Virus record (IMG/VR): IMGVR_UViG_3300013414_000359
Span: 834-64,833 of that record
Origin: a virus
Taxonomy: Duplodnaviria > Caudoviricetes
Reading direction: 5' to 3' (one strand)
DNA: 64,000 nt
Under the pieces are notes generated by a model. That model worked only from the letters and a program-made list of their open reading frames with translations. It was not told the origin of the DNA and did no database searches. This document shows positions 2,937 through 23,828 of this stretch, piece by piece. Both the position numbers and the translations under genes were made by a program. Within the stretch, counting starts at the first letter, position 1. Each line of letters begins with the position of its first letter.

Positions 2937-2955
2937 TTTCAATTCTCTCCTTTCT

Positions 2956-3016
2956 GCCCTGCCATCATCAGCACCGGTGGGGCGGTTCCGGTGGACGGGC
3001 TTTCGCCCGTTTCGGC
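2956..3016 (-). ncRNA. Type II hammerhead ribozyme (HH1)
   Basis: gcc GAAAC gggc-gaaa-gccc GUC caccgg-loop-ccggug CUGAUGA (u)ggc; loop I gccc can pair with tail gggc; one extra U after the core. Confidence 0.8.
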
Positions 3017-3169
3017 TTATTTCTCCCAAACCTTCTTCGCAAAGGCTGCGGTCAGGTCTGCGAGATATGCTGCACTGTGCTGTGCCTGTTCGTCATCGTC
3101 CATCAGACTTACGGTGTATTTGATTTCCTCTTTGAGTTCCTCATAGCTCATTTCTTCGATTGCTTTCAT
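3017..3169 (-). CDS. 50-aa acidic hypothetical protein, first gene after promoter P1 (not in the ORF track)
   Basis: RBS AAGGAGG; MKAIEEMSYEELKEEIKYTVSLMDDDEQAQHSAAYLADLTAAFAKKVWEK*; its stop abuts HH1. Confidence 0.65.
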   Translation of the reverse strand: MKAIEEMSYEELKEEIKYTVSLMDDDEQAQHSAAYLADLTAAFAKKVWEK

Positions 3170-6200: not shown

Positions 6201-6468
6201 TTGTCCATGCCATTGCCCTCCCAATATCAACACCGAGGTCTTCGGTGCAGTAATCCGTGCCGTAAGCCTCGTTGAAATCCTCAATACACACGCTGGGGAT
6301 ATAGCTGTCCCCGTCCAGCCTCGCCCTGCCGTCTGCGATGATTTTCGCCAACGCCGCTTCGATGTCGGCATTGTCACCGCAGAAGATGGCGCTTTCCTCA
6401 GCCTCGGTGATTTCCAGCGAAACACCGAGGCGTATCCACAGTTCTCTCATTTGTTCTGCTCTGCCCAC
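3299..6468 (-). other. Cluster of about 10 small co-oriented phage hypothetical genes
   Basis: Tightly packed minus-strand ORFs, mostly with RBSs: 3299-3535, 3516-3839, 3802-4044 (TM), 4041-4355, 4345-4635 (CxxC), 4635-5024, 5021-5209, 5224-5637, 5654-6208 (CPHC/CPVC Zn-finger-like), 6121-6468. Confidence 0.7.
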
Positions 6469-7469: not shown

Positions 7470-9175
7470 ACTGCTTCCTCCTCACCATCTTCGGTTTCCT
7501 GATAACAGTCGGGGCAGCGCCCGTCCTGCATAACATCGTTCTTGAAATAGCGTCCGCAGTCCTCGCACTCGGAATAATACCTATCGCGGCAATCAGGGCA
7601 GACCATCGTAGCCGCGCCGTCTTCGTTAAAAGCCTCGACAGCGTAATCGGGGTGGACATAACAGCCGCACTCCTCGCAGCAAATATACTCGTCGATGCAG
7701 TCTTCACAAATCCAAACTTCGTTGCCGCGATGGTCTATGGCGTGAAACATATTCTCGCGGAGATGCCATTCGCCGCACTCGTCACACTGCTCGCAATACT
7801 CCGCCAAGCAGTCGTCACAATAATCCTGACCGACATCTTCAACCCAAGTCACATTGTCACTGTGGTGATACTCGTCACAGCGGTCGCAGCGGGTGTAGTG
7901 GTCATCAAGGCAGTTTTGGCACACGCGAATTTCGTTTCCTCTGCGGTCGTAAACCGTATACATATCGTCCGAGTCGTAATACTCCTCGCAATCATCGCAG
8001 TATTCTCTGTCGTCGTGGTCGTCATCACAGTCCTTGCAATAAACGCCGTGGCTTGTTTCCTCGGCGCAGACCACGCAGATGCCCCAAGTGCCGACGGTCA
8101 GAGGCTCATAATCCTCCTCGTGGTCTGCGCGAATGCTGACCTTGCCGTCGAAATTGTCGTAAGTCCAATCAGCATAGCCGCCAAAACCGCTGCCAATTTG
8201 GACGCAATGCTCCTTTTCCTTGCCGCAGTACGGGTAGGTCTTCCACAGGTTCGGCACTCGCTCAAGAGCGGAAATCTCGCGCTGGACCAAATCGCGGTAC
8301 AGCTTGGAGTCCTCTGCCGCCCCGTAAACACCGCCGGAGGTGTTGTAGAAACGGCTCTGCATCAAAAGCCCGTTCCCCGGCTTGTAGGCGAAAATCTGGC
8401 GGGTGGTCTTGCGGTTGTTCAGCGTCTCGGCGTCCATCGGGTCGTTGACAGTAAAGACGATGAAGCTGTACTTGTCGCGGGCATAGCCCGTGCAGCCGTT
8501 GTTGTACTCGTACTCAGTCGAGTTGAACGAATGGCAACTCGTCAGCGTGTTCCCACGCTCGTCACATTTCGGATTGCTCATTGTCAGGAAGTGAGCGGGG
8601 TTGATGGAAACATACAGCTTGAAACCAATCTTCTTGGCTGTCAGCTCGTCTGCGAACTGTGCGTAGAGCTTCTGAAATTCGCTGCCCGCAGTTTCATCAG
8701 CGATGCCAAGATGAACGCAAATTGCCTTGAAAACTCGGCTCAACTTTCTGCCCTGTGCGTACGCCTTGGGCGCAATCTGCGCGATTGCCGCGATGCCCTC
8801 CTGTTGCGCGTCTTGACTGTCGGGCATTGAGAAGAACCGAACAACCTTTTCCAGCATCTCATAGCTGGTGTTCTCATCGCGGCAGTATGCGGGCTGAAAA
8901 ATCTTTCGCGCCAAGTCCGCGATGCGGGTATAATCAGGATTATGCGTTCTCGTCCCGTTGATAACCAACGCGTCCAGCTTAGAGTCCCAAACAGGGGACT
9001 GACTGAACAGCTCACGCAGTTCCTGCTTGGCGCGGGAACTGTCCTCTGCCAGTCTTTTGATGAACGCATTGGAGATGTTGTCCAGCACCTCCGTCTGGTG
9101 GGTGTGGCGGCGATAGTCTTCAATCGCCTGACGGATATTTTCTTCCGCTTGCTTAATAATCTCACTCATTTCCAT
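7466..9175 (-). CDS. Large phage protein with a C-terminal array of about 11 CxxC motifs
   Basis: CVVC, CKDC, CDDC, CQNC, CDRC, CDDC, CDEC, CEDC, CEEC, CPDC, CEDC, CPDC; start re-set to MEMSE (9175). Confidence 0.75.
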   Translation of the reverse strand: MEMSEIIKQAEENIRQAIEDYRRHTHQTEVLDNISNAFIKRLAEDSSRAKQELRELFSQSPVWDSKLDALVINGTRTHNPDYTRIADLARKIFQPAYCRDENTSYEMLEKVVRFFSMPDSQDAQQEGIAAIAQIAPKAYAQGRKLSRVFKAICVHLGIADETAGSEFQKLYAQFADELTAKKIGFKLYVSINPAHFLTMSNPKCDERGNTLTSCHSFNSTEYEYNNGCTGYARDKYSFIVFTVNDPMDAETLNNRKTTRQIFAYKPGNGLLMQSRFYNTSGGVYGAAEDSKLYRDLVQREISALERVPNLWKTYPYCGKEKEHCVQIGSGFGGYADWTYDNFDGKVSIRADHEEDYEPLTVGTWGICVVCAEETSHGVYCKDCDDDHDDREYCDDCEEYYDSDDMYTVYDRRGNEIRVCQNCLDDHYTRCDRCDEYHHSDNVTWVEDVGQDYCDDCLAEYCEQCDECGEWHLRENMFHAIDHRGNEVWICEDCIDEYICCEECGCYVHPDYAVEAFNEDGAATMVCPDCRDRYYSECEDCGRYFKNDVMQDGRCPDCYQETEDGEEEAV

Positions 9176-9620
9176 TGTGGTGTCCTCCTTTGAGCATTCC
9201 ATCGTTGATGTAGTTCGCAAAAATCCAGTTGCGGCAAGTGCGCTGCTTCTGTGTGAAGAAGCCGTGCGGGTTAGGCTTGTAGTCCGCAAAGTCGATGCGG
9301 CGGGCGTCTGTAATCGTCAGGTGGATATTTTTGTTATCCACCTCAACCGTTTCGCCCAGAGCGGGTATGAACGCGATGTGTGTATTCTCGTGCCAGTTGA
9401 ATCCAGCACTCAGTCCACAGAGGTAATACGCCACAGCTTTCGGGTCGCGCTTGACCTCGATGTCGATAATCGCGCTGGGCTTGCGCAGCGTCCCGTAGTA
9501 GACGCGGTTGTCTTTCTGACCGATGAAACACTCCGCACAGCATTTGTAGATGTTCACCGCACGAATGCTTCTCAGCCAGAAGAACTCGTGGTAACGTTTG
9601 ACTTCCAGTTTCAGGTGCAT
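9162..9620 (-). CDS. Unknown Cys-rich protein, paralog 1 of 3
   Basis: Shares FFWLR, CCAxCF, YYLCGLS, NTHxAF and QRTCRNWIFANY with 21997-22431 and 56597-57061. Confidence 0.85.
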   Translation of the reverse strand: MHLKLEVKRYHEFFWLRSIRAVNIYKCCAECFIGQKDNRVYYGTLRKPSAIIDIEVKRDPKAVAYYLCGLSAGFNWHENTHIAFIPALGETVEVDNKNIHLTITDARRIDFADYKPNPHGFFTQKQRTCRNWIFANYINDGMLKGGHHNGNE

Positions 9621-9640
9621 TGGTTTGTCCTCCTTGTTTT

Positions 9641-9668
9641 AGAGCCGTGAGGCTCTTTTTTTTATTTT
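9641..9668 (+). terminator. Plus-strand intrinsic terminator within a minus-strand operon
   Basis: AGAGCC-GTGA-GGCTCT followed by TTTTTTTATTTT. Confidence 0.55.
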
Positions 9669-10102
9669 GCTGTCGTTCTCTTGCGACCGCGTTTCTTGGC
9701 GGCGGGCTTCTGAACGGTTTTGTCCTTGCGGGTCTGCTTTCTCACAACCGGCTCATCGGTCTGCCACATTAGGCTGACCTTGAACGCTCCCGAACTCATA
9801 CGCTCGATGGCGCAGGTCCAGTCGTCGGTCTCAACCGTGACATCGGGGTCTTCGCGGTCAGCACTGTCAACGGCACTCATAATCTGCTCTGCGGCTTCTG
9901 CAAGAAGTGCAGCAGCTTCGGCAGCCTCAAGGTACTTGAGCAGCCAGTAACCGGCTTTCTTGTAGCTGCGGACGGTGTAGAGAACATCGGCTTGGCAGCG
10001 GTTGCCGCCAATCTTGATGTCCATTACGTTGTCTGTCTCGGCGTAATTCGCCTGTCCCGGTTCGTGGATTTTCACCCATCTGCTTTGTCTCAGCTCTGTC
10101 AT
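9662..10102 (-). CDS. Hypothetical protein with a basic C-terminal tail
   Basis: Start re-set to MTELRQ after RBS AAGGAGG; the upstream extension in the ORF track is the HH2 ribozyme. Confidence 0.7.
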   Translation of the reverse strand: MTELRQSRWVKIHEPGQANYAETDNVMDIKIGGNRCQADVLYTVRSYKKAGYWLLKYLEAAEAAALLAEAAEQIMSAVDSADREDPDVTVETDDWTCAIERMSSGAFKVSLMWQTDEPVVRKQTRKDKTVQKPAAKKRGRKRTTAK

Positions 10103-10129
10103 TTTATTTGTCCTCCTTAATGGAATTTT

Positions 10130-10190
10130 GACCTGCCTCATCAGCACCGGGCGGTCGGTCTCCGGTGGACGCCCTTTTGGGCGTTTCGGC
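10130..10190 (-). ncRNA. Type II hammerhead ribozyme (HH2)
   Basis: gcc GAAAC gccc-aaaa-gggc GUC caccgg-loop-ccggug CUGAUGA ggc; loop I gacc can pair with tail gguc; compensatory changes relative to HH1. Confidence 0.88.
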
Positions 10191-10209
10191 TTTCTCCACT
10201 TCAAGTGTT

Positions 10210-10256
10210 TTGCTCTAATTCAGCTAACGATTGAAATGGTTTTTAACCCAAAAAGA
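10210..10256. other. Left inversion site (attR-like hybrid: P-type arm + GA core + B-type arm)
   Basis: TTGCTCTAATTCAGCTAACGA TT GA AA TGGTTTTT; arm matches the attR arm at 15/21; 10232-10242 is a perfect 11-bp inverted repeat of 20952-20962. Confidence 0.8.
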
Positions 10257-10751
10257 GGCGTGTTGATATTCAGCGCCGCTGCACTCCTCTTTCTCACCGG
10301 CTGTGGTGCTGACGAAACCGCTATCAAGCCGACTGACGCGCTGGCCGCGGAGCCATTAACGGCTTACGTCGAGTCTACTGAGATGCTGACTTCAATGCCA
10401 GTCTCAATGCAGAAGCCTTGGACAGACGAAGAACTCAGCTTGATGGCAAGGACGCTTTCAGGCGAATGCTACGAGGATAAGGAACTTGACAAAAGACGGG
10501 TCTGCGAAGTCATCTTGAACCGAGTGAGCGACGGACGATTTGGCGACTCAATCTGCGAGGTCATTACCGCACCAAATCAGTTCCAAGGCTATTGGCGCCC
10601 ATCGCGTCCTGTATCTGAGAATGATTTGGCTGTTGCGGAACAAACCCTCGAAGATTGGTACGAGAACGGATGCAAAGCACTTTCTCCGTACCTGTACTTT
10701 AGCGCCGGTGGAAACCGTGAAAACACATTCTATGAAGACATAGAGTGGTGA
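10236..10751 (+). CDS. SleB/CwlJ-like cell-wall hydrolase (Hydrolase_2) lipoprotein, separated from its RBS and first three codons
   Basis: ARTLSGE...VILNRV...VITAPNQF motif; lipobox LTGC; no RBS here; GGAGGT...ATG GGT GAA sits at 20980-20959 on the minus strand. Confidence 0.8.
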   Translation: MVFNPKRGVLIFSAAALLFLTGCGADETAIKPTDALAAEPLTAYVESTEMLTSMPVSMQKPWTDEELSLMARTLSGECYEDKELDKRRVCEVILNRVSDGRFGDSICEVITAPNQFQGYWRPSRPVSENDLAVAEQTLEDWYENGCKALSPYLYFSAGGNRENTFYEDIEW

Positions 10752-10771
10752 AAAATAAGGAGGACAAACAA

Positions 10772-11185
10772 ATGTTAGAAGTAAAAGTAACCATCGAGGC
10801 CGCTGAACTGGCGGCGGCAGTCAACAACCTCGCAGCCGCGATGAACGGCGCGAAGCCTATCCCAACAGGAGCGGCAGCTACTCAGGCCCCTGCACCTGCA
10901 ATGCCGAACCCCATGCCCGCACCTACGGCTCCCGTAGCTCCGCCCGCACCCGCTGCACCCGCAGCGCAGATGAACTACCCCGCACCGAGCGTACCGCTTG
11001 CTGCGCCCCCGCAGTACACTGTAGACCAGATTATGGCGGCTGGCGCGACCCTGATGGACGCTGGCAAGGTGAACGAGCTGATGAACTTGCTGCACTCTTT
11101 CGGAGTACAGGCGGTTATGGACCTCAAGCCGGAGCAGCTTGGAGCCTTTGCAACCGCAATGCGTGACTTGGGAGCGAAGATATGA
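10772..11185 (+). CDS. Pro/Ala-rich hypothetical protein typical of PolA-type phage replication modules
   Basis: RBS AAGGAGG; C-terminal LLHSFGVQAVMDLKPEQLGAF helix. Confidence 0.7.
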   Translation: MLEVKVTIEAAELAAAVNNLAAAMNGAKPIPTGAAATQAPAPAMPNPMPAPTAPVAPPAPAAPAAQMNYPAPSVPLAAPPQYTVDQIMAAGATLMDAGKVNELMNLLHSFGVQAVMDLKPEQLGAFATAMRDLGAKI

Positions 11186-12351
11186 GCAGTCACGCACTCC
11201 TTTCTCCCTCAAGTGCGCATCGGTGGCTGAACTGCCCTCTTGCTCCGAGGCTTGAAGCCACTCTCCCTGAGAAACCGAGCGAGTACGCCAAAGAAGGAAC
11301 AATCGCCCACAGCGTCTGCGAGGTCAGTGCAAAGCTGCATTTCAAGAGCATCAAGAAGACCGAGTACAACAAGGTCATCAAGAAGCTGAAAACTGACACT
11401 CTGTGGGACGACGAAATGCTCCGAACAGCAGAAACCTATGTCGAGCATCTAAGCGAAAACGCTATGCACTTTGAACACGAGCCGTATGTGGCTTTCGAGG
11501 TCAGGGTTGATATTGCGGATTATGTACCCGATGCTTTCGGCAAATGCGACTGTATTATGTTCGGCGGGGACACGCTCATTATCACGGACTATAAGCACGG
11601 TAAAGGCGTTCCCGTTTCACCGGAGGAAAACCCTCAGCTTATGCTGTATGCGCTTGGCGCATTGAAGCTCTACAAGCCTCTGTTCGGCGGTGCGATTAAA
11701 AAGGTCGCAATCGTCATCGACCAGCCCCGCCTCAATTCCTATGAAATGTGGACTTGCGCCACAGAGGAGCTGCTTGCTTGGGGCGAAAGCATAAAGCCGA
11801 AAGCGCAAGCTGCGTTTATGGGTTTTGGTGAGTATCACGCAGGTGATTGGTGCCGCTTCTGCCGCGCCAACGGTATCTGCAAAGCACAGGCTGAACAGCA
11901 GACCAGCGCATTTGATGATTTCGCAGGTGCTGTCGGAAACCCACAAGCAATCCTGACGCCCGAAGAAATCAGCGCAGTCTTGGAGCGCGGCAAAAACCTC
12001 GCAGAGTGGTTTAAGACCGTACAGGAAAAGGCATTGGAAATGATGCTAAACGGTGACAAAATCCCCGGCTACAAGGTCGTGGAGGGCCGCAGTCAGAGAG
12101 CTTGGACAGACCAAGACAAGGCTCTTGAGAAGCTGCAATCGTCCGGCATTGAGCGCGCTGTTATTTATGACAGCGTTCCCAAAACCCTTGCACAGCTTGA
12201 GAAACTGCTTGGCAAAGCCAAGTTCGATGAACTGGTTAGCGAGTTTGTCTTCAAGCCGCAGGGTAAACCGACCCTCGCACTGGCAGATGACCCGCGTAAG
12301 GAGTTCAACAGCGCCGCTGCTGACTTCGCGGGGGTGACAAATGGCTCGTAA
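11182..12351 (+). CDS. DUF2800-family PD-(D/E)XK nuclease
   Basis: HALLSPSSAHRWLNCP, FGKCDCI, ITDYKHGKG, NPQLMLYALG, WCRFC. Confidence 0.85.
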   Translation: MSSHALLSPSSAHRWLNCPLAPRLEATLPEKPSEYAKEGTIAHSVCEVSAKLHFKSIKKTEYNKVIKKLKTDTLWDDEMLRTAETYVEHLSENAMHFEHEPYVAFEVRVDIADYVPDAFGKCDCIMFGGDTLIITDYKHGKGVPVSPEENPQLMLYALGALKLYKPLFGGAIKKVAIVIDQPRLNSYEMWTCATEELLAWGESIKPKAQAAFMGFGEYHAGDWCRFCRANGICKAQAEQQTSAFDDFAGAVGNPQAILTPEEISAVLERGKNLAEWFKTVQEKALEMMLNGDKIPGYKVVEGRSQRAWTDQDKALEKLQSSGIERAVIYDSVPKTLAQLEKLLGKAKFDELVSEFVFKPQGKPTLALADDPRKEFNSAAADFAGVTNGS

Positions 12352-13294
12352 TATATACCCAGGCAGATGCTACTGCTGTGGAGCTTGGATAGAGCCGGGC
12401 TACGGACATTTCGAGCGTCACAAAGGTCACTGGCGCATAAAATGCGTGAAATGCGCCAGCGGTAGAGTTCTTACTGAACAAGACCCCGGTGTTAAGTGGG
12501 CAAAGAGCGTTGCCCAAAAAACTAAATGCGAAAATGACAAGGAGGACAATCAAATGTATAACAATGTACCTACGAAAGTTTTGACCGGCGAGGTTCGCCT
12601 GTCCTATGTAAACCTCGTTGCGCCGAGAGCGAACAACAGCGACCCGAACGCAACGCCCAAGTATTCTGTTACGCTGCTCATTCCGAAAACCGATGTAGCG
12701 GTAAAGCAGAATATCGACGCCAGCATCGAGGCTGCTGCGGCTGACGCGCAGAGCAAGATTTGGAATGGCGTCAGACCCCCTGTTCTGCCCATTCCCATTC
12801 ACGATGGCGATGGCGTTCGTGAAAACGGAACTCCCTACGGACCTGAGTGCAAGGGTTGCTGGGTAATCACAGCCAGCTCCACACAGAAGCCGCAGGTGGT
12901 TCATCAGAGTGACATCAACACCGAACTGTTGCCACAGGACATCTACAGCGGTATGTATGCTCGTGTGACAATCAATTTCTTCGGCTACAACAGAGCCGGT
13001 AAGCGTGGCGTGGGCTGCGGTCTCGGCAACGTGATGAAGACCCGCGATGGCGAGGCTCTTGCCGGGGGTGCGTCCGCAGCGGCTGATTTCGCCGGTGTCG
13101 GTCAGACGATTGGTGCAGTTACCCCTGACTATGGAGCTGCTATGCCCGCTACCCCCGGCGCTGCTGGTACGCCGCCTTGGGGTGCTCCTGCCAGTCCCGC
13201 ATACGGACAGCCTGCCGCAGCCGCACCCTCTAACCCGATGGGCGTTCAGCCGGGGGCGGTCAACCCGCTCACAGGTCAGCCTTACTATGGGTAA
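12341..13294 (+). CDS. DUF2815-family ssDNA-binding protein with an in-frame N-terminal Zn-finger-like extension
   Basis: VRLSYVNL...KYSVTLLIPK...IYSGMYARV...GVGCGLGNVMKTRDGE; internal RBS before MYNNV (12554); extension has CYCC and CVKC. Confidence 0.8.
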   Translation: MARNIYPGRCYCCGAWIEPGYGHFERHKGHWRIKCVKCASGRVLTEQDPGVKWAKSVAQKTKCENDKEDNQMYNNVPTKVLTGEVRLSYVNLVAPRANNSDPNATPKYSVTLLIPKTDVAVKQNIDASIEAAAADAQSKIWNGVRPPVLPIPIHDGDGVRENGTPYGPECKGCWVITASSTQKPQVVHQSDINTELLPQDIYSGMYARVTINFFGYNRAGKRGVGCGLGNVMKTRDGEALAGGASAAADFAGVGQTIGAVTPDYGAAMPATPGAAGTPPWGAPASPAYGQPAAAAPSNPMGVQPGAVNPLTGQPYYG

Positions 13295-13333
13295 TACGCT
13301 ATAGGCGCACAGATATTTCACCGAATACCCAAG

Positions 13334-13372
13334 ATGCGCGGCTGCGGTTAGTGGATAGCCGCAGCCGCGCAT
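13334..13372 (+). terminator. Long GC-rich hairpin between the SSB and polymerase genes
   Basis: ATGCGCGGCTGCGG...CCGCAGCCGCGCAT perfect 14-bp stem; short U tract. Confidence 0.5.
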
Positions 13373-13390
13373 TTATCATTTGTATAGGAG

Positions 13391-15382
13391 GTGGAGATGT
13401 TGAGGCATCTTTCGATTGATTTAGAGACATACAGCAGCGTCCCCATCGCTAAAGCAAGTGCCTACAAATATGTTCAAAGCCCCGACTTTGAGATACTGCT
13501 TTTTGCTTATAGCGTAGATGGAGATCCTGTTGAGATTGTTGATTTGGCGCAGGGCGAGGTATTACCGGACTGGCTGTATCAGGCGATAGCCAGCCCTGAA
13601 TACATCAAACACGCTTACAATGCGGCGTTTGAATGGTATTGCTTGTCGAAGTTTTATGGACGACTGCTGCCGGTAGACCAATGGCGAGACACGATGTTGC
13701 ACGGTCTGTACTGCGGTTTTACAGCAGGACTGGACGCCACAGGCAAGGCTCTTGGTCTTCCTGCCGAGAAACAGAAGCTGTCTGTTGGCAAAGCCCTTAT
13801 CCGATATTTCTGTGTTCCCTGCGCTCCCACAAAGAGCAATGGCGGCAGAACACGGAACCTTCCGAAGCACGACCCTGAGAAGTGGGGTCTGTTTAAGGAA
13901 TACTGCGTCGGTGATGTTGTGACCGAATCCGAGATTGAGCGGCGGCTGTCGCGCTTTCCTGTTCCTAATGACATCGAGAAGCAGTGGCAGACGGATTTGC
14001 TGATAAATGCTCGCGGTGTAGCAGTTGATATGGATATGGTGCAGGGCGCACTGGAAATCGCCGCAAACGCGCACGATGCTCTTATGCGCGAGGCTGTTTC
14101 CCTTACAGGGCTTGAAAACCCCAACAGCATCGCACAGCTTTCCAAATGGCTTGAAAAGGAGACCGATGAGAATATAGCCGACCTCCGTAAAGACACGGTT
14201 GCGATGCTGCTGAAAAACCAAGTCGTGACCGGTGATGCGGAGCGAATGCTTGAAATCCGTCAGGAACTCGGCAAGACCAGCACCAAGAAATATAACGCCA
14301 TCGAAGCTGCTGTCTGCGCTGATGGTCGTGTGCGCGGATTGTTGCAGTTCTACGGTGCAAACAGAACAGGACGGTGGGCAGGACGGCTGGTGCAAGTCCA
14401 GAACCTACCTCGCACCTACATTGAACAGCTTGACCTCGCAAGAGGTGCTGTGAAACGGCGAGAGGCTGAAAAGCTGCGGTTTTGTTTCGGCTCTGTGCCT
14501 GACACGCTCTCGCAGCTCATACGGACTTCATTCATAGCGACCAAAGGAAACAAGCTGGTAGACGCCGACTTCTCAAGCATCGAGGCAAGAGTTATCTCGT
14601 GGCTTGCGGGAGAACATTGGCGGCTCGATGTGTTCAAGACACACGGCAAAATCTACGAGGCATCTGCCAGCCAGATGTTCGGCGTTCCGATTGAGAAGAT
14701 AAAAAAGGGCAACCCCGAATACGCACTGAGACAGCGCGGCAAGGTTGCTGAACTCGCCCTCGGTTATCAGGGCAGTACGGGCGCGCTTATCACGATGGGC
14801 GCTCTGAATATGGGCATTCCGGAGGAGGATTTGCCCGACATCGTGACCCGTTGGCGCGAAGCCAACAAGCGGATTGTAGACCTGTGGTATCGCGTTGAGA
14901 ATGCTGCCGTTTCCGTTATTCAGACGGGGCAGCAGGTAGGCGTGAACAATCTGCTCTTTACGAGAGAGTTTGACCTTGAACATGGTCTGGACTTTCTGAC
15001 GATAACACTGCCGAGCGGACGCAAGCTGTTCTATGCGAGACCGGAGCTTGGCGTGAACCAATGGAACAAACCCTCGATTACCTACCGAGGCGTACACCAA
15101 TCAACAAAACAGTGGACTGTCCTTGAAACCTACGGCGGCAAACTGGTGGAGAATATTGTGCAAGCCATCGCCCGCGACTGCCTTGCGGCAGCGATTGAGC
15201 ATCTGGAAGAAGCGGGATTTCCTGTAGTATTCCACGTTCACGACGAGGTTGTTATCGACTGTCCGGCTGACAAAGCGAACCTTGATGAAGTTGTCCGGCT
15301 TATGACCTTACCAATCCCTTGGGCGCAGGATTTGCCTCTGAACGCTGATGGCTGGGTCGGGGACTTCTTTAGAAAGGATTGA
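13391..15382 (+). CDS. Family A DNA polymerase (3'-5' exonuclease + polymerase domains)
   Basis: SIDLETYS, HAYNAAFE, TGRWAG, DADFSSIEAR (motif A), RQRGKVAELALGY (motif B), VHDEVV (motif C). Confidence 0.93.
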   Translation: MEMLRHLSIDLETYSSVPIAKASAYKYVQSPDFEILLFAYSVDGDPVEIVDLAQGEVLPDWLYQAIASPEYIKHAYNAAFEWYCLSKFYGRLLPVDQWRDTMLHGLYCGFTAGLDATGKALGLPAEKQKLSVGKALIRYFCVPCAPTKSNGGRTRNLPKHDPEKWGLFKEYCVGDVVTESEIERRLSRFPVPNDIEKQWQTDLLINARGVAVDMDMVQGALEIAANAHDALMREAVSLTGLENPNSIAQLSKWLEKETDENIADLRKDTVAMLLKNQVVTGDAERMLEIRQELGKTSTKKYNAIEAAVCADGRVRGLLQFYGANRTGRWAGRLVQVQNLPRTYIEQLDLARGAVKRREAEKLRFCFGSVPDTLSQLIRTSFIATKGNKLVDADFSSIEARVISWLAGEHWRLDVFKTHGKIYEASASQMFGVPIEKIKKGNPEYALRQRGKVAELALGYQGSTGALITMGALNMGIPEEDLPDIVTRWREANKRIVDLWYRVENAAVSVIQTGQQVGVNNLLFTREFDLEHGLDFLTITLPSGRKLFYARPELGVNQWNKPSITYRGVHQSTKQWTVLETYGGKLVENIVQAIARDCLAAAIEHLEEAGFPVVFHVHDEVVIDCPADKANLDEVVRLMTLPIPWAQDLPLNADGWVGDFFRKD

Positions 15383-15388
15383 GGCTAT

Positions 15389-15592
15389 TTGTATACACAC
15401 AGAAATTCAGAAGGATATAAAGACCCAACAGCTGGCGAGGCGCTTAGTAACATTACGCAGGAAGAACAGAAACGCCTTGCGGCGATAAGCGCACTTATCC
15501 CAATTATGAAACAGACAGCGGAGCTTGTTGGATTTGAAGTTGTTGGACGTATTGTCCTTATGGATAAGGAAACAGGCAAAAAGTATAAATGA
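15389..15592 (+). CDS. Small phage hypothetical protein
   Basis: RNSEGYKDPTAGEA motif, common in Firmicute phages. Confidence 0.65.
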   Translation: MYTHRNSEGYKDPTAGEALSNITQEEQKRLAAISALIPIMKQTAELVGFEVVGRIVLMDKETGKKYK

Positions 15593-15605
15593 TGGAGGCT
15601 TTGCT

Positions 15606-18032
15606 ATGCAAAACGACCGTAAAATTACAATAACGGTTGGTAACAATCGAAAAAGCATAAATTGGCAGCCTCAGTCCATCATGTTGTCCGAGTTCTACGA
15701 AAAACTCCGAATCCCAAACCGCTCGACTGAGACGATGCTGGAATACCTGAACCTCAAGAAGTCAGAGCAGGACGAGCGAAAGGACATCGGCGGCTTTGTG
15801 GCGGGCAGTCTTTCGGGACCCCGCCGTAAGGCTGGCGCGGTTACAGGGCGTGATGTTATCACTCTCGACTTCGACAATATCCCACCAGGAGGAACGCAGG
15901 AAATCCTCAAAAGGGTGGACGCTCTCGGCTGCGGTTATTGTATCTATTCCACACGAAAGCACGCGCCCGCAAACCCAAGGCTTCGTATTCTTCTGCCATT
16001 CGACAGAACGGCTACCGCCGATGAGTATGAGCCAACGGCAAGGTATATGGCGGCGTGTATTGGGATTGAGTTCGCGGACCCGACAACATTTGAAGCGACA
16101 AGGCTGATGTACTGGCCGAGCTGCTGCGCAGACAGCGAGTATGTGTACTACTTCGGCGATAAACCCATGCTGTCTGTAGACGGATTGCTGAGAGCCATGA
16201 CGGAACGTTACGGTGACTGGCGAGACGTTACCCACTGGCCGCAGGTCCCCGGCTCTGAGAACGCATACAGGAAGATGGCAACCAAGCAGAGCGACCCACT
16301 CGGAAAGAACGGTATCATCGGGGCGTTCTGCCGCACCTACGACATTTACGGTGCAATGGACACCTTTCTTGACGGCATATACGCCCCTGTGGACGATTCT
16401 CGTGGACGCTATACCTATCTCGGCGGCAGCACAACAGGCGGTGCGGTAATCTACGACAACGGAATGTTCCTGTATTCCCACCACTCTACCGACCCCTGCT
16501 GTGGAAAGCTCGTCAACGCCTTTGACCTCGTGCGACTGCACAAGTTTGGCGATTTGGACGATGCTGCGGACTCCAAGACGCCGCCGAACCGCCTCCCCTC
16601 TTATCGGGCGATGTGCGAGTTTGCGGTAGCGGACACCAAGGTTTCGCGGCAGATGGCAAAGGAACGGGCTGAGTCAGCGGTAAGCGACTTTGCCAAGATG
16701 ACTGAAACCACAGGTGAAGAAGAAGCCGAGGGGCTTGCGTGGTCTGCGGAGCTGGAACTGAACAAGCAGACAGGTACAATAAAAGCCACAATAGACAACA
16801 TCTGGCTCATCTTAGAGAACGACCCGAACCTCAAAGGCAAGTTCGCTTTGAACGAGTTTGCAGGGCGCGGCGAGGTGCTGGGAGACCTCCCTTGGAGCGC
16901 ATTCGATAAGCGCAGAGCGTGGGCAGACCACGACAATCAGGGCTTGTACTGGTACTTTGAAAAGGTATACGGCATCACCGGCAACGGCAAGATTGACGGC
17001 GCTCTTTCGCTGCACAGCGAAAAGCACAAGTTCAACGACGTGAAGAACTATCTCATATCGCTGCAATGGGACGGCGTACCGAGGCTGGACACCCTGTTTG
17101 TGGACTACCTCGGTGCGAGTGATAAGCCCTATACGAGAGCCGTCACACGAAAGGCTTTCACAGCGGCTGTGGCGCGGGCATTGGAGCCGGGTTGCAAATA
17201 TGACACGATGCTGATTCTTGCGGGACCGCAGGGCATCGGCAAGTCCACGCTCCTCGATAAGATGAGTAAGGGCTGGTTTAACGACGGCATACGCACATTC
17301 GAGGGCAAGGAGGCAAGTGAACTGCTCCAAGGCGTTTGGCTGGTGGAAATCAGCGAACTGGACGCTTTCAGACGCACTGACGTAGCCAGAATCAAGCAAT
17401 TCCTCAGCTTACGGGCGGATAGATTCAGAGCCGCCTATGGGCGCCATGTGAAGGATATTCCACGCTGCTGTGTGTTCTTTGGCACAACGAATACAACCGA
17501 GTTCCTGCGGGACAGAACCGGCAACCGACGCTTTTGGCCGGTAGATACGGGACTGGAACCGAAGCTCAAGAACATCTGGGCTGATTTGGACGGAGAGATA
17601 GACCAGATTTGGGCAGAAGCCGTTATGCGCTGGCGTTTAGGCGAGAGCCTGTATCTCGTAGGAGATGTCGAGGAAGATGCGAAAGCCGAGCAGGAATCCC
17701 ATAGGGAAATCAGCAGTAAGGAAGGCATCGTTCTCGATTTTGTGGAGCGACCAGTTCCAGAAGATTGGCCCAAGTGGGACCTTGACAAGAGGCGAATGTT
17801 CCTTAACGGTATGAACCAAGGTGAAGTAACACTTGTCCTGCGCGACAGGATATGCGCTTTGGAAGTGTGGTGCGAAGCATTCGGCGGTTCACCAAAGGAC
17901 TTTCACTACACAGAGGCTGTTGAGATTAACGAAATACTGCGGGCGATGCCGGGGTGGACGAAAACGGCAACAGGCTTGCGCTTTGGGTATTGTGGTTATC
18001 AGAGGGGTTTCCGTCGTGAAACATTAGGGTGA
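15606..18032 (+). CDS. Primase-helicase (virulence-associated protein E / VirE-like)
   Basis: Primase-like N-terminus (TLDFD, YSTRKH, RLRILLP); Walker A GPQGIGKST; ELDAF, FFGTTN, DRTGNRRFWP. Confidence 0.88.
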   Translation: MQNDRKITITVGNNRKSINWQPQSIMLSEFYEKLRIPNRSTETMLEYLNLKKSEQDERKDIGGFVAGSLSGPRRKAGAVTGRDVITLDFDNIPPGGTQEILKRVDALGCGYCIYSTRKHAPANPRLRILLPFDRTATADEYEPTARYMAACIGIEFADPTTFEATRLMYWPSCCADSEYVYYFGDKPMLSVDGLLRAMTERYGDWRDVTHWPQVPGSENAYRKMATKQSDPLGKNGIIGAFCRTYDIYGAMDTFLDGIYAPVDDSRGRYTYLGGSTTGGAVIYDNGMFLYSHHSTDPCCGKLVNAFDLVRLHKFGDLDDAADSKTPPNRLPSYRAMCEFAVADTKVSRQMAKERAESAVSDFAKMTETTGEEEAEGLAWSAELELNKQTGTIKATIDNIWLILENDPNLKGKFALNEFAGRGEVLGDLPWSAFDKRRAWADHDNQGLYWYFEKVYGITGNGKIDGALSLHSEKHKFNDVKNYLISLQWDGVPRLDTLFVDYLGASDKPYTRAVTRKAFTAAVARALEPGCKYDTMLILAGPQGIGKSTLLDKMSKGWFNDGIRTFEGKEASELLQGVWLVEISELDAFRRTDVARIKQFLSLRADRFRAAYGRHVKDIPRCCVFFGTTNTTEFLRDRTGNRRFWPVDTGLEPKLKNIWADLDGEIDQIWAEAVMRWRLGESLYLVGDVEEDAKAEQESHREISSKEGIVLDFVERPVPEDWPKWDLDKRRMFLNGMNQGEVTLVLRDRICALEVWCEAFGGSPKDFHYTEAVEINEILRAMPGWTKTATGLRFGYCGYQRGFRRETLG

Positions 18033-18327
18033 TACATTTCGGCTAAGTCGAACATTAGACACGAAAGTCGAAGTTTAGGCGGGAAATTCAACACAATGTT
18101 TCAGGGTAGTTTGTTTCAATGTTTCGGCAATGTTTCACCCAATGTTTCACCCTCAAAACCGCACCGTTACTGGCTTTTTACCCTATTTGAAACATTGAAA
18201 CATTCATTTCTAATAGACTTTAGAATTAGAGAGAATAGAGATATTAGAGGATTTATATACTTCTCTAATACTCTCTAAATCCTCTAATCTGGGCGTTATA
18301 TACGCGCACGCGCGCGAGGAGGACAAA
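18018..18327 (+). repeat. ~300-bp non-coding origin-like element, copy 1
   Basis: Four CAATGTTTC direct repeats, inverted GAAACATT copies and AG/CT-rich inverted repeats; homologous to 41943-42250 (inverted). Confidence 0.75.
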
Positions 18328-18621
18328 ATGCTTGAAAAGACCATAGAACGACACCTCGTAGACGGGGTAAAAAGATTGGGCGGCTTATGCGTGAAGTTTG
18401 TCAGTCCCGGCACACCGGGCGTACCCGACCGCATTATCATAACCGCCACAGGCAAAATCATTTTTGTAGAGTTGAAAACCGAAACCGGACGCTTGGCGAA
18501 AATTCAGCGGTACACCATCGAACAGATGATGAGGCGCGGAGCCGATGTCCGAGTTATCAAAGGGCTGGACAGCGTGAAGGAGCTGTTAGCTGAAATTGGA
18601 GGTATGCAGAATGGAGTTTAA
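18328..18621 (+). CDS. VRR-NUC domain nuclease
   Basis: KFVSPGTPGVPDRI...FVELKT. Confidence 0.88.
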   Translation: MLEKTIERHLVDGVKRLGGLCVKFVSPGTPGVPDRIIITATGKIIFVELKTETGRLAKIQRYTIEQMMRRGADVRVIKGLDSVKELLAEIGGMQNGV

Positions 18622-19981
18622 GCCCTACCCATATCAACAATATTGCATCGACAGTATCATCTACAATCGGGCAGTTGGGCTTTTTCTCGATATGGGTCTT
18701 GGCAAAACGGTTATTACCCTAACCGCAATCCACGACCTCCGATACAACCGATGGGAAGTCGCCAAACCACTGATTATCGCCCCGAAGAAAGTGGCAGAAG
18801 CGACGTGGAGTACAGAGGCGCAGAAGTGGAACCACTTAAAGATGATGAGGATTGTTCCGGTTATCGGAACTCTCCAACAGAGGCTTCGGGCTTTGGCGAC
18901 ACCGGCAGACGCCTATGTTATCAATCGGGAGAACACGCAATGGCTGGTGGAGCATTTCAAGAACGAGTGGCCGTTCGATATGGTTGTTCTTGACGAGAGT
19001 TCCAGTTTCAAGAACAGTCAGAGCAAGCGGTTCAAATCCTTGAAGCTGGTCCGAAGCAGGATTCGCCGCATCGTGGAGTTGACGGGAACCCCGTCAAGCA
19101 ACGGCTTGGAGGACTTGTGGGCACAGGTGTACTTACTGGACGGAGGCGCACGACTTGGCAAGACACTGAGCGCTTATCGGGATAAATACTTTATCCCCGG
19201 CAAGCGCAATCGGACGACGGTGTTTAATTACACCCCGAAGGACGGCAGTTTCGAGATGATAAAAAGCGCAATCAGCGACATCTGCATCAGCATGAAAGCC
19301 AGCGACTACATCTCCCTGCCAGACGTGCTTCACAACGACATTCCCGTCGTGTTGGACGCTGCGGCGCAGAAAGCCTATACCCGATTGGAGACAGAGCTGC
19401 TGTTGCAGATTGATGAAAACACCATCACGGCTGGCAGCGCAGGAGTACTTACGGGCAAGCTGCTACAGCTTTGCAACGGGGCGATTTACGATGAGAACAA
19501 AGCGGCGGTGGCAGTTCACGATTGTAAGATTGACGCTTTCCTTGAGTTGATTGAGCAGCTGAATGGGCAACACGCCCTTGTGTTCTATAACTTCCAGCAC
19601 GACCGCGACCGGCTGCTGAAAGCCCTGACGGGTACGAACCTGCGTGTCAGGGTCTATTCACAGGCAAAGGATGAGGTTGATTGGAACAACGGGGAAATCG
19701 ACATACTGCTTGCGCACCCCGCAAGCTGCGGCTACGGGTTAAACCTCCAACGAGGCGGACACCACGCCATCTGGTTTGGGCTGACTTGGAGCTTGGAGCA
19801 GTACGAGCAGGCAAATAAGCGGTTGCACCGGCAAGGGCAAGACCACCCTGTCGTAATCCACCACTTGATTGTCAAGAACGGAATGGACGAGACAGTCATC
19901 GAGGCGCTGCAAAATAAAGGCGATATGCAGAACGCCCTGATGGACGCCTTGAAGGTCAAAATTCGCCAGTTGCACCGTTAA
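18611..19981 (+). CDS. SNF2-like (DEAD/DEAH) helicase
   Basis: LDMGLGKT, VVLDESS, LTGTP, GYGLNLQ, QANKRLHRQGQ. Confidence 0.9.
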   Translation: MEFKPYPYQQYCIDSIIYNRAVGLFLDMGLGKTVITLTAIHDLRYNRWEVAKPLIIAPKKVAEATWSTEAQKWNHLKMMRIVPVIGTLQQRLRALATPADAYVINRENTQWLVEHFKNEWPFDMVVLDESSSFKNSQSKRFKSLKLVRSRIRRIVELTGTPSSNGLEDLWAQVYLLDGGARLGKTLSAYRDKYFIPGKRNRTTVFNYTPKDGSFEMIKSAISDICISMKASDYISLPDVLHNDIPVVLDAAAQKAYTRLETELLLQIDENTITAGSAGVLTGKLLQLCNGAIYDENKAAVAVHDCKIDAFLELIEQLNGQHALVFYNFQHDRDRLLKALTGTNLRVRVYSQAKDEVDWNNGEIDILLAHPASCGYGLNLQRGGHHAIWFGLTWSLEQYEQANKRLHRQGQDHPVVIHHLIVKNGMDETVIEALQNKGDMQNALMDALKVKIRQLHR

Positions 19982-19999
19982 AAAAGGAAGGAAACCAAA

Positions 20000-20473
20000 A
20001 TGCAAAAAACGGAAATGCTTGAAATAGCCAAACTTGCGGCAGCGGAGGTCTTGTCCCAGCGAGACTCCATCGTCGAGGAGGAGTTCGACTCCCGATACCA
20101 CGATGTCAACCTGCTGATGAAGAACTACCGTAAGCTGAAATCGCATTACTCCCACGTTTCGCCGGAGACGTTGGAGGTCAGTTCTATATGCTCCATGCGC
20201 CGTAAAACCGGCTTGATGATGAGCCACGTTGATAAGATGCTGACGGTGTACAAGGCTTTATGCGAGGAGGCTGTCAACTCAGAAGAAGCCCGCCGGTGGG
20301 AGGCTCTTTACCTCCGCTACATCAGTGATGAGAAGATAAGCGTCGATGACATAGCTGACAGGCTGCACATAGACAAGCGGACTTTTTACCGAGACATCAA
20401 CAAGGCTATGGAGGATATGGCTGTCCTGCTGTTCGGCATCGAGGCTATCGGCACTTGGAAACGCCGCAGGTAA
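20000..20473 (+). CDS. Sigma-region-4-like/ArpU-type transcriptional regulator (candidate late activator)
   Basis: C-terminal HTH SVDDIADRLHIDKRTFYRDINKA; last gene of the replication operon. Confidence 0.7.
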   Translation: MQKTEMLEIAKLAAAEVLSQRDSIVEEEFDSRYHDVNLLMKNYRKLKSHYSHVSPETLEVSSICSMRRKTGLMMSHVDKMLTVYKALCEEAVNSEEARRWEALYLRYISDEKISVDDIADRLHIDKRTFYRDINKAMEDMAVLLFGIEAIGTWKRRR

Positions 20474-20502
20474 CAAGGCGTTCGGAAATGACAATCAGGG
20501 AC

Positions 20503-20536
20503 CCGTCAAGTGATGACAGGCCCCTGATTTTTGTTG
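20503..20536 (+). terminator. Terminator ending the replication operon
   Basis: AATCAGGG...CCCTGATT followed by TTTGTTG. Confidence 0.6.
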
Positions 20537-20587
20537 CTGAACGTGGCATTTCGAGAAAATTTTTCTGAAAAAATTTCTAAAAAGGTA

Positions 20588-20616
20588 TTGACATACTCAA
20601 CTTAAAGTGCTATAAT
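20588..20616 (+). promoter_or_regulatory. Consensus sigma-A promoter P2 (near-copy of P1)
   Basis: TTGACA-TACTCAACTTAAAGTGC-TATAAT-AAGAGTATAA. Confidence 0.85.
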
Positions 20617-20670
20617 AAGAGTATAAGGAAAACAAAGAAAAAGGAACCCGATAAGAGGAGGACAAGATAA

Positions 20671-20940
20671 ATGGATAAGCAGTGCATTCAAGAAGAAATG
20701 GAATATCGTGAGTGGCGAGAAGCTCCGCAATGGTATTGCGTAAAGACAACCTACCACCTAAGCACCGGCAAGATGGAAAGCGAAATCGTAGCCGACGAGA
20801 AAACCAACCTCGCAATCGTGATACAGCAGGTCGAGAAACCGTCGGACGGCGTGTTTGAGACGGCGAACAGCACAATCTACTACACCTACCACAGAAGCTA
20901 CGAAGAAGCAAAGCGCCAGATGATGGCGGCAAGAGCATAG
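20671..20940 (+). CDS. Hypothetical protein, first gene after P2; its stop codon lies in the att-like arm
   Basis: 89-aa ORF with RBS AGGAGG; TAG at 20938-20940 is part of ATAGGCAAAT. Confidence 0.75.
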   Translation: MDKQCIQEEMEYREWREAPQWYCVKTTYHLSTGKMESEIVADEKTNLAIVIQQVEKPSDGVFETANSTIYYTYHRSYEEAKRQMMAARA

Positions 20941-20980
20941 GCAAATACAGCAAACCATTTCACCCATATCAATTACCTCC
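20937..20980. other. Right inversion site (attL-like hybrid, inverted)
   Basis: ATAGGCAAATACAGCAAACCA TT TC ACCCAT; arm matches the attR arm at 19/21; outer part carries the RBS and ATG GGT GA of the split SleB-like gene. Confidence 0.85.
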
Positions 20981-21187
20981 TACCGCCATCTGGCGGCTTT
21001 TTCTTTGCCTGAAATCGAATTGGCTGATGAAATTCTCGCCGTTGTAGCTTGTCTCTCGGTAGTAAATACCGTCCTCAAGCCACTCCCGCCGGACACTCTC
21101 GCCGTCTCGCAGCTTTGGCAGGGCGTCTTGCGCCTCTTTTGCCAACTCTGTCGCAACAGCGAACAAAACAGCAGACGCGGCGGTCAT
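20969..21187 (-). CDS. Hypothetical protein downstream of cro
   Basis: 72-aa ORF coupled to cro (ATGA overlap); its 3' end contains the RBS for the next gene. Confidence 0.7.
   Translation of the reverse strand: MTAASAVLFAVATELAKEAQDALPKLRDGESVRREWLEDGIYYRETSYNGENFISQFDFRQRKSRQMAVGGN
20983..21006 (+). terminator. Terminator stopping the P2 transcript just past the inversion site
   Basis: CCGCCA-TC-TGGCGG-C-TTTTTCTTT. Confidence 0.6.
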
Positions 21188-21390
21188 TTCCTCTCCTCGA
21201 CGTCATCGGCAAGAAGCTCCTCGATGGTGCAGCCGTAGAGCTTTGCAAGAATAGGCAACTTATCCGCGCGAGGTCGGGCAAGCCCGCGCTCCCACTTGCT
21301 TACGGCAGATTCCTTTACACCGAGAATTTTGGCAACTTCTCGCTGGGTAGGGATAGCACCGCGGAGTCTTCGTTCCCTCATAACATTCAT
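21184..21390 (-). CDS. Cro-like XRE HTH protein
   Basis: TQREVAKILGVKESAVSKWERG...PILAKLYGCTIEELL. Confidence 0.88.
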   Translation of the reverse strand: MNVMRERRLRGAIPTQREVAKILGVKESAVSKWERGLARPRADKLPILAKLYGCTIEELLADDVEERK

Positions 21391-22000: not shown

Positions 22001-22431
22001 AAATGACTTTGGAAATCAAGAAGAAGTGTTCATTCTTTTGGCTGCGAGCCATTCGGAGCGCAAGGATTGACAAGTGCTGTGCAAAATGCTTTAATGCGGA
22101 CACTTTCCATGAGGTTTATGAGGGAACACGCTATAAGGACAAAGCACTTGTGGAGTTAGACATCACTCCCGACAGTCGAGCGAAAGCCTACTATCTCTGC
22201 GGCTTGAGTAACGGCTTTAAGTATGAGGAGAACACCCATGTCGCCTTTGTCCCCTGCGAGGGACAGACCATCTCGATTGAGAACGATAAGATTCGGCTTG
22301 TTATCACCGACGCCCGTCAAATTGATTTTGAGGGCTATAAGCCGAATCCCGAAGGTGAGTTCACAGAGGAGCAGCGCACCTGCCGTAACTGGATATTTGC
22401 GAACTACCTTCTGGACGGAATGCCTCTGTGA
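21997..22431 (+). CDS. Unknown Cys-rich protein, paralog 2 of 3 (between repressor and integrase)
   Basis: Same invariant motifs as 9162-9620; overlaps both neighbours by 4 nt. Confidence 0.85.
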   Translation: MKMTLEIKKKCSFFWLRAIRSARIDKCCAKCFNADTFHEVYEGTRYKDKALVELDITPDSRAKAYYLCGLSNGFKYEENTHVAFVPCEGQTISIENDKIRLVITDARQIDFEGYKPNPEGEFTEEQRTCRNWIFANYLLDGMPL

Positions 22432-23828
22432 GACGAGCCGCTATCTATATCCGCGTTTCTACTCAGGAACAGGCGCAGGAGGGTTATTCAGTCGGTGAGC
22501 AAAAAGAGCGCCTGATAGCCTACTGCAAAGCGCAGGATTGGCTGATAGCGGATATTTATGTGGACGGAGGGTACACAGGCAGCAACCTCAATCGTCCCGG
22601 CATACAGAAGCTGATGGCCGAGACAGACAAGTTTGATGTGGTGCTGGTCTACAAGCTGGACAGACTCTCCCGTTCACAGCGCGACACCCTGTATCTTATC
22701 GAGGAGATATTCTTGCCGAATAAGGTGGATTTCGTATCTATGCAGGAGAGCTTCGATACCTCCTCACCGTTCGGCAAGGCAATGATTGGTCTGCTTGCGG
22801 TATTCGCGCAGCTTGAGCGTGAGCAGATTAAGGAGCGCACCAAGATGGGGCGTATAGCGAGGGCAAAGGCGGGGCTGTATCACGGCGGTGGCAACATACC
22901 CATCGGCTATGATTACTCGGACGGGCATCTTGTGGTAAATCCATACGAGGCTGAACAGGTCAAGAAGATATTTGCGTGGTATCTTGAGGGCGCATCGTTA
23001 AAGACCATCACAGACCGTTTGCAAGAGGCTGGCTACACTAACCGTTACGGCAGCTATAGCTCGTGGTCGAGCGTCAGGAATATCCTTGAGAATGAGACCT
23101 ATTTGGGTCGCATACACTTTGGCGATGTCTTGGTCTTCGACGCGCACGAGCCGCTTGTTACGGAAGAACAGTTTAATGCAGTTCAGAAGCTGCGAGGGAA
23201 AAGGAGGGAGCGATATGGGACTTGGGCTTTCCAATCGAAACACTTGCTGACGGGTATGTTGTACTGCGGTCATTGCGGCGGTCGGTATTATCTTCGGAAC
23301 TCAGGCAAGTATTCCTATTACGCTTGCTACTCCCGAACCAAGCAGATAAAGGCTATGATTAAGGACCCCAACTGCCAGAATAAGAACTGGAAAGGACCGG
23401 AATTAGAGGCTCGCATCGACGCAAAGATTAGGGAGCTGCTTCATAATCCAGAGCTGGTGGCGGATATAGCTGCCCGCAGACCGAAAGCCGCTCCTCCCAT
23501 CGAGAATATCGCTATCGAAAAGCGCATCGCTGAAATTGACCGGCAGATAAACAAGCTGATGGGGCTGTACCAGCAGGACGAGATACCGCCAGAGCTGTTG
23601 GGCGAGCAGATAAACAAGTTGTATGGCGAAAAGACCGCCCTGCAATCCTCACTCACGCCTGTGGCAGAGCCGGAGGAGCAGCCATTCGATTTGGTACAGG
23701 CTCTGATTGCGGACGCCGTCCAAATATGGGACTTCGCTGACGAGGCGCAGAAACGGAGAATTATGCAGAGCCTCGTATCCAGAATAACCCTGACTGATGA
23801 TGACATTGACATCGAGTGGGCGTTCTGA
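22428..23828 (+). CDS. Large serine recombinase (integrase)
   Basis: IYIRVST catalytic Ser, DGGYTG, YKLDRLSR; recombinase domain; Zn ribbon CGHCG...CYS...C; coiled coil. Confidence 0.95.
   Translation: MRRAAIYIRVSTQEQAQEGYSVGEQKERLIAYCKAQDWLIADIYVDGGYTGSNLNRPGIQKLMAETDKFDVVLVYKLDRLSRSQRDTLYLIEEIFLPNKVDFVSMQESFDTSSPFGKAMIGLLAVFAQLEREQIKERTKMGRIARAKAGLYHGGGNIPIGYDYSDGHLVVNPYEAEQVKKIFAWYLEGASLKTITDRLQEAGYTNRYGSYSSWSSVRNILENETYLGRIHFGDVLVFDAHEPLVTEEQFNAVQKLRGKRRERYGTWAFQSKHLLTGMLYCGHCGGRYYLRNSGKYSYYACYSRTKQIKAMIKDPNCQNKNWKGPELEARIDAKIRELLHNPELVADIAARRPKAAPPIENIAIEKRIAEIDRQINKLMGLYQQDEIPPELLGEQINKLYGEKTALQSSLTPVAEPEEQPFDLVQALIADAVQIWDFADEAQKRRIMQSLVSRITLTDDDIDIEWAF

Follow-up and report, generated by a model that had tools for sequence, protein, structure and literature searches.

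The type II hammerhead ribozyme HH2 lies at the edge of a 10.7-kb DNA segment in a prophage; both orientations of this segment exist, and the flipped form puts the promoter P2 upstream of the ribozyme. We think it probable, on balance, that HH2 is the 5′-leader hammerhead of a 7-kb operon, that the phage integrase flips the neighboring segment with integration and excision, and that the transcript is split only when the segment is flipped. As a molecule, HH2 belongs to an ordinary, well-described ribozyme class. What is new is its placement, a hammerhead at the edge of an invertible module, where DNA rearrangement would decide whether it becomes part of a message.

Our analysis covered a stretch of 64,000 nt (positions 834 to 64,833 of IMG/VR record IMGVR_UViG_3300013414_000359), hereafter called the window, which holds a prophage of ~60 kb (GC 0.52) in host DNA of GC 0.37, inserted in a small gene that follows the gene for a Y-family polymerase. 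HH2 separates two divergent blocks, with a minus-strand operon on its left and the plus-strand hydrolase gene and replication and recombination genes on its right. A repressor-like gene and the large serine recombinase lie beyond the Cro-like and 72-aa genes. The features are as follows.

2953..3017, minus strand, HH1, the sister hammerhead (Rfam RF02276)
9662..10102, minus strand, P0001, a 146-aa gene with its ATG at 10102, first cistron of a leftward operon that runs to ~3300
10112..10118, minus strand, Shine-Dalgarno sequence of P0001, the gene that follows HH2 (hand reading)
10127..10191, minus strand, HH2, type II hammerhead ribozyme (Rfam RF02276 and covariation)
10203..10220, minus strand, 18-nt block between the crossover and HH2 (comparison with relatives)
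10210..10260, site A, left boundary, core 10232–10242, crossover GA at 10233–10234 (resemblance to the attP arm, public junctions)
10234..20960, invertible segment of 10.7 kb (both orientations in public assemblies)
ATG at 10236, plus strand, cell-wall hydrolase gene, which opens the replication/recombination block
20588..20616, plus strand, P2, a promoter with 12/12 sigma-70 consensus and a TG extension (promoter scan)
20671..20940, plus strand, 89-aa gene
20937..20985, site B, right boundary, core 20952–20962, crossover TC at 20960–20961 (match to the attP arm, public junctions)
20969..21187, minus strand, 72-aa gene, transcribed from the Cro promoter at 21470–21442
20983..21006, plus strand, intrinsic terminator just outside site B (scan; conserved in the relative G001)
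21184..21390, minus strand, Cro-like gene, transcribed from the same promoter at 21470–21442
22428..23828, plus strand, large serine recombinase (Pfam PF00239 Resolvase, PF07508 Recombinase, PF13408 Zn_ribbon_recom)

The leftward operon that starts at P0001 spans 7 kb, and homologues of P0001 in relatives are 44–58% identical. No Pfam or PHROGs family was found for P0001, the 152-aa gene that comes next, a 607-aa gene, or the 89-aa and 72-aa genes.

A cmscan search of Rfam matched RF02276 (Hammerhead_II) at 10191–10127 on the minus strand with 46.5 bits (gathering threshold for this family, 37 bits; E 2.2e-6), and the match covers the full model from 1 to 66. This score and a reading by hand bear out the canonical core and GCC/GGC stem II that a first-pass annotation of the sequence had claimed. 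The core is without deviation, with GAAA at 10187–10184 and CUGAUGA at 10144–10138 (both read by hand), the A15.1–U16.1 pair, and H17 at the cleavage site. Of the three helices, stem I (10167–10162 with 10150–10145) and stem III (10184–10179 with 10174–10169) are hairpins closed by loops, while stem II (10190–10188 with 10137–10135, 3 bp) is open. A tertiary contact of four pairs forms a pseudoknot between loop I (10156–10153, GACC) and the 3′ tail (10133–10130, GGUC). With GUC ending at 10168, cleavage is predicted between 10168 and 10167, where the same annotation had put it, and we infer that HH2 RNA would cleave itself after 10168. The leader of the operon after cleavage would be 65 nt (10167–10103), and the spacing between hammerhead and ribosome-binding site is also kept in relatives. 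The letters of HH2 are the same in ON and OFF contigs, and its hammerhead stems still form in predicted folds that include either upstream context, flipped or unflipped.

The first-pass annotation had also proposed an inversion between sites with att-like arms near 10210–10230 and 20937–20957. Sites A and B share a core of 11 bp, and the likeness of the arms held up: the attP arm is matched at 20/22 positions by the site B arm (20938–20959) and at 17/22 by the site A arm, and the one further place within six mismatches of it matches at 16/22, which is chance level. The distance of 20 nt that had been given between HH2 and the inversion site holds for the outer edge (10210) of the 21-bp arm; from the crossover dinucleotide at 10233–10234 to the 5′ end of HH2 it is 42 nt. 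The segment begins with the gene for the cell-wall hydrolase, continues with those for replication and recombination, and ends with the 89-aa gene.

When the window's own proteins were looked up by exact sequence in public assemblies, both arrangements of the same phage were recovered. At least 12 of its public assemblies have the segment inverted, with the break precisely at the 11-bp core that had been predicted, so the proposed inversion does occur between these sites. A flipped junction of 195 nt, built from the window by joining 20900–20959 to the reverse complement of 10100–10234, is present letter-perfect at four loci from three independent metagenome assemblies (L039, L040, L046, and L048), where it runs from the end of the 89-aa gene through the hybrid site and HH2 to the ribosome-binding site. 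These contigs agree with the earlier claim that inversion would place HH2 behind P2, the 89-aa gene, and a palindromic site of attP-like sequence; the stop codon of the 89-aa gene then lies 83 nt, and P2 ~400 nt, upstream of HH2. The second junction, which leads from the 72-aa gene through the core into the hydrolase gene, is found in L050, L052, L063, and L066–L070. Here an ATG at 20967–20965 and its upstream Shine-Dalgarno sequence join the hydrolase gene in frame to give a 174-aa product. In the window orientation, the hydrolase ATG at 10236 is without a Shine-Dalgarno sequence, and neither inspection by eye nor a scan revealed a convincing sigma-70 promoter for this gene.

Contigs of 10754 and 10298 bp start at the segment boundary, the longer one having the length of the segment itself; such contigs are the expected output of an assembly graph when one sample holds both orientations. 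The two sites consist of imperfect inverted half-sites, their central dinucleotide, GA/TC, is non-palindromic, and both recombinant configurations are seen, as for the sites of serine integrases. In four public runs, Logan contigs (which drop minor variants) contained no strand-change joints at either site over 2000–21999, and in the RNA run among these four, whose contigs are without strand or RNA-end information, HH2 is not covered. Neither the start of the hydrolase gene nor a degenerate version of the flipped junction was matched when JGI metagenome contigs and IMG/VR were scanned for exact patterns.

The orientation of the segment is linked to the state of the phage, the flipped form being associated with attP and excision and the window orientation with integration. 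In L055 and L059, both of the flipped contigs whose attachment site was readable, attP is intact, which identifies them as excised, circular phage. The ends of two flipped contigs of genome length fall at arbitrary places, the behavior expected of circular molecules, and the longest flipped contig among those seen is 60.4 kb; the att state of four further flipped contigs was judged from length and break position only. The window and the long integrated contigs (71, 107, and 172 kb, so long that they must include host DNA) are all unflipped, and eight other contigs carry the same phage end followed by eight different host flanks. The 174-aa product made only by the flipped form occurs in 34 index blocks, versus 423–555 for neighboring genes. 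As a separate observation, the same phage end is joined to nine different flanks in public contigs (2262–2263 and 62394–62395; loci L053–L062), always after TT/AA. Since the flanks are so many, the serine integrase appears to use many degenerate targets and not one attB.

How might inversion be coupled to integration? The recombinase has the resolvase, recombinase, and zinc-ribbon domains of a large serine integrase and is the single site-specific recombinase in the record, which has one match to PF00239 and none to PF00589. In the flipped state, one site pairs two attP-like arms and the other two unlike arms, whereas in the window state each site has one attP-like and one unlike arm. Since this is the pattern of attP/attB versus attL/attR, the integrase alone would be expected to convert the flipped to the window form. 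Read in this way, the half-sites suggest that the integrase alone flips the segment to the window orientation upon lysogenization and that a directionality factor reverses the reaction upon induction. The 72-aa and 89-aa genes are candidate recombination directionality factors, by position only. A broader possibility, for which we judge the chances to be about even, is that, in this family of gut phages, the single integrase also flips the 10.7-kb replication module through a second, orthogonal pair of sites, that lytic operons meet their promoters only when the phage is excised, and that HH2 is the RNA piece at the junction, cutting the message of the 89-aa gene, as a candidate directionality factor, from the next operon.

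P2 is a near-twin of the promoter at 3252–3224. Its transcript is predicted to end at the terminator at 20983–21006 in the window orientation only. Upstream of HH2 in the window orientation, a sigma-70 scan gave at best a 9/12 match, 540 nt upstream and within hydrolase-gene antisense, in keeping with the first-pass claim that no promoter is visible there; between the start of the hydrolase gene and HH2, no sigma-70-like promoter was found in either the window or G001.

From this arrangement, we propose that in the integrated prophage, in the window orientation, the HH2 operon would be without a facing promoter and HH2 would be silent, with P2 transcribing just the 89-aa gene as far as the terminator. 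Once the phage is excised and the segment flipped, the P2 transcript and read-through from the Cro promoter, which in this form would traverse the hydrolase and replication genes toward HH2, would continue past the 89-aa gene, cross the attP-like site, and reach HH2. The upstream piece released by cleavage would be an 89-aa message ending in the stem III hairpin and a 2′,3′-cyclic phosphate, and this 3′ end may stand in for the terminator at 20983–21006 that is lost on inversion. The downstream piece would be an operon mRNA with a 5′-OH, the stem I hairpin, and a fixed leader of 65 nt, rid of the palindromic att-site RNA. Transcription in the ON state only and trimming of the leader by HH2 are consistent with the architecture.

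It is also possible, though we think it unlikely, that HH2 is ordinary operon punctuation, cleaved whenever the early genes are on and in either orientation, through read-through or an unrecognized promoter; its closeness to site A would then reflect a module boundary. The stretch from the hydrolase start to HH2, which has no sigma-70-like promoter in the window or in G001, argues against this alternative, as does the perfect promoter that the flipped state supplies 400 nt upstream. Other observations favor it at the expense of the integrase-coupled switch. When the segment is unflipped, the Cro promoter points into it antisense, and since a scan found only weak minus-strand terminator-like sites between this promoter and HH2, read-through to HH2 is possible in that state. 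In addition, the 18-nt block at 10203–10220, upstream of HH2, is the same in the window, G001, and L029 and has one change in L028, a conservation beyond what would be expected from the proteins, which are only ~55% identical. The block may be the outer part of a recombination half-site, but it could also be an unrecognized promoter.

The positions of hammerheads in related phages bear on the same question. A hammerhead lies upstream of the P0001 homologue, as HH2 does, in four relatives. The flipped layout, hammerhead included, is also seen on an 8.5-kb MAG contig from a more distant phage (L028/L032), where the order on one strand is helicase, 157-aa gene, 89-aa gene, palindromic attP-like site, hammerhead, P0001 homologue, and the next genes; no other part of this phage was found in the MAG that holds L028. 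G002 and G003 have recognizable sites at both boundaries, with the P0001 homologue directly after site A and without a hammerhead. Because such relatives keep the sites without the ribozyme, HH2 is not essential to the switch; this dispensability counts against our favored explanation and for punctuation, and L029, which has a differently permuted copy, also counts against the former. In G003 the hammerhead is instead between the homologues of the 157-aa and 89-aa genes, while G001 has a 48-codon ORF between site and hammerhead and a second hammerhead elsewhere. Together with HH1, these copies place hammerheads at several intergenic positions in the phage group, as punctuation would lead one to expect, and the clustered prophage hammerheads beside variable genes described by Perreault et al. 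(PMC3088659) can be cited in its support. The scatter among relatives agrees with the published view that hammerheads are a movable form of punctuation around small genes of phages.

Some features of the relatives deserve separate mention. The 89-aa gene led to 13 IMG/VR relatives, every one of which has the unflipped layout; the fixed architecture that this suggested was overturned by the exact-protein look-ups in public assemblies. In L029, an Oscillospiraceae prophage, the hammerhead-like sequence at ~2880–2960, in HH2's spot, has an open stem I (type I-like) and a bulged stem II, and had no Rfam matches at E 0.1. G001 (L035) carries an attP-like palindromic site at 14019–14070 (record 34019–34070), between MazF-like and head-protease genes, and has a structural module unrelated to that of the window. 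Its segment is unflipped despite this site being flanked by phage genes, which is a further point against the link that we favor between orientation and excision; G001 may represent a genome that has not integrated, a composite, or a phage that sits within another prophage.

Evidence that the fold of HH2 has been maintained comes from covariation. We aligned eight hammerheads, which include HH2, HH1, four from phage relatives (at three positions), and a copy from Dulem virus 39, the sole hammerhead match in the phage collection searched. In this alignment, 97.4% of cells pair, and 12 of the 19 pairs have changed on both sides; none of 500 shuffles reached this level of pairing and covariation, and slid controls pair in 26–41% of cells. 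For the stems alone, 98–100% of cells pair over the eight copies, with compensatory changes in 10 of 15 stem pairs. Within the pseudoknot, the pair 41–66 is AU in four copies, CG in two, and GC in one. The differences between HH1 and HH2 that the first-pass annotation had read as compensatory are part of this pattern: by hand reading, the strands of stem III are swapped between the two, as it had claimed, and the pseudoknot indeed changes from GCCC/GGGC in HH1 to GACC/GGUC in HH2. Compensatory changes in all four helices across the copies point to selection on the HH2 fold, and at the level of sequence HH2 is confirmed as a genuine type II hammerhead. These same changes, and a core that is fully canonical in the window, make it very improbable that HH2 is an inactive relic that travels with the module, without a role and with its consensus kept by descent, even though some relatives are without HH2 and the core U of CUGAUGA is replaced by C in the copies of L028 and L029.

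HH1, at 3017–2953 on the minus strand, scores 39.8 bits against the cut-off of 37 in cmscan, a result that, like the HH2 match, was repeated on the whole record. It lies between a 50-aa ORF and a PemK/MazF-like gene, downstream of the promoter at 3252–3224, and its layout echoes that of HH2: after a near-identical promoter come a short first cistron, a hammerhead, and the PemK/MazF-like gene. That HH1 and HH2 together release a 7.2-kb RNA (10167 to 2994) for circle ligation or another special fate is hardly credible, since, although they have the same orientation and bracket the operon and circular or spliced products were raised as a possibility by Perreault et al., HH1 is served by a perfect promoter of its own and is separated from the operon by a first cistron, those authors sought such products and found none (PMC3088659), and no sign of ligation appeared in the present analysis.

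Around HH1 we also noted that in run X7, over 2948–3019, depth is ~146 versus 22 for the remaining phage. Several unrelated contigs of this run match just the 70 nt of HH1, which indicates HH1-like hammerheads at other loci in the sample. Inside the PemK/MazF-like gene, a G-run of ~13 (2567–2579) varies in length among runs and assemblies, and the gene products called are of 145, 148, 155, 156, and 157 aa. It is possible that the run is a slippage tract that alters the C-terminal tail of the toxin-like protein.

How does the switch that we propose for HH2 compare with known systems? Gin, Hin, and Cin are serine recombinases that carry out inversion between inverted sites with a non-palindromic central dinucleotide and so reconnect promoters to genes. 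In the present phage, unlike these systems, the enzyme appears to be the phage's own integrase, a whole replication module flips, and orientation tracks the excised or integrated state. A closer likeness may be with the "rewritable memory" modules, based on an integrase plus a recombination directionality factor, that Bonnet et al. are said to have built in 2012, whose states alternate between attB/attP and attL/attR; the half-site pattern of sites A and B suggests the same alternation as in those engineered modules. Our literature search found no description of a natural integrase-driven inversion of a phage replication module. On the RNA side, RiboJ is a synthetic insulator that Lou et al. 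reportedly engineered in 2012 from a satellite-RNA hammerhead of another permutation. Like RiboJ, HH2 is a predicted self-cleaver placed ahead of a ribosome-binding site and behind an upstream context that varies; it could yield a constant leader, so that an insulating role may be proposed for it.

The contig data suggest that inversion and integrase are coupled. If so, this temperate phage would have a previously undescribed means of locking its lytic genes, and the HH2 switch would, if true, be a natural counterpart of engineered recombinase memory combined with a ribozyme insulator. Bacterial and phage hammerheads were discovered in prophages in 2011 and their biological role has since been an open question, for which the setting of HH2 gives a clear prediction. 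One ribozyme sequence exists in two natural DNA states, one promoter-less and the other 400 nt behind a consensus promoter. The effect of cleavage on the flanking messages is therefore measurable here, and isolates carrying the phage appear to exist.

Type II hammerheads with a pseudoknot between loop I and the 3′ tail are known to cluster in prophage operons (Perreault et al., 2011; PMC3088659). HH2 is like them in its core, its open-stem-II permutation, its short stem II, and its covarying pseudoknot of 4 bp, and also in its location between cistrons of a temperate phage, with several copies per genome beside small genes. HH2 differs from the cases in that study in lying 42 nt from an inversion crossover and in having an upstream transcription unit that changes with orientation; gating of hammerheads by DNA orientation is not described there. 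The same work gives the best precedent for our favored explanation. The halovirus hammerhead HHphage is at the 5′ end of a major early polycistronic transcript, where its cleavage site is the mapped 5′ end and it trims the leader (PMC3088659). It resembles HH2 in coming from a phage and in directly preceding the first ORF of an early operon, although it has another core variant and another host, and the control proposed for it is by salt and not by DNA rearrangement.

Several other elements of the prophage were noted in passing. Three perfect sigma-70 promoters with near-identical spacers each stand behind an AT-rich palindrome of the GAAAAATTTTTC type (palindrome and promoter together at 3224–3279, 20553–20616, and 21442–21544). 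These palindromes are probably operators of the repressor, which could mean shared regulation of the toxin-antitoxin-like pair, the 89-aa gene, and the Cro operon. Upstream of HH2, a 10-mer palindrome also seen in promoter spacers was set aside, as it is not enriched (4 matches versus 3.9 expected). Three paralogues of 144–172 aa, which belong to no known family and are 52–62% identical to one another's relatives, are encoded at 9162–9620, after the first gene that follows HH2; at 21997–22431, between the repressor and the integrase; and at 56597–57115, among late genes. Finally, an RT-18 RNA motif (71.5 bits, 28978–29062) is present at the 5′ end of a reverse-transcriptase ORF, and this region (27770–29062) is a diversity-generating retroelement.
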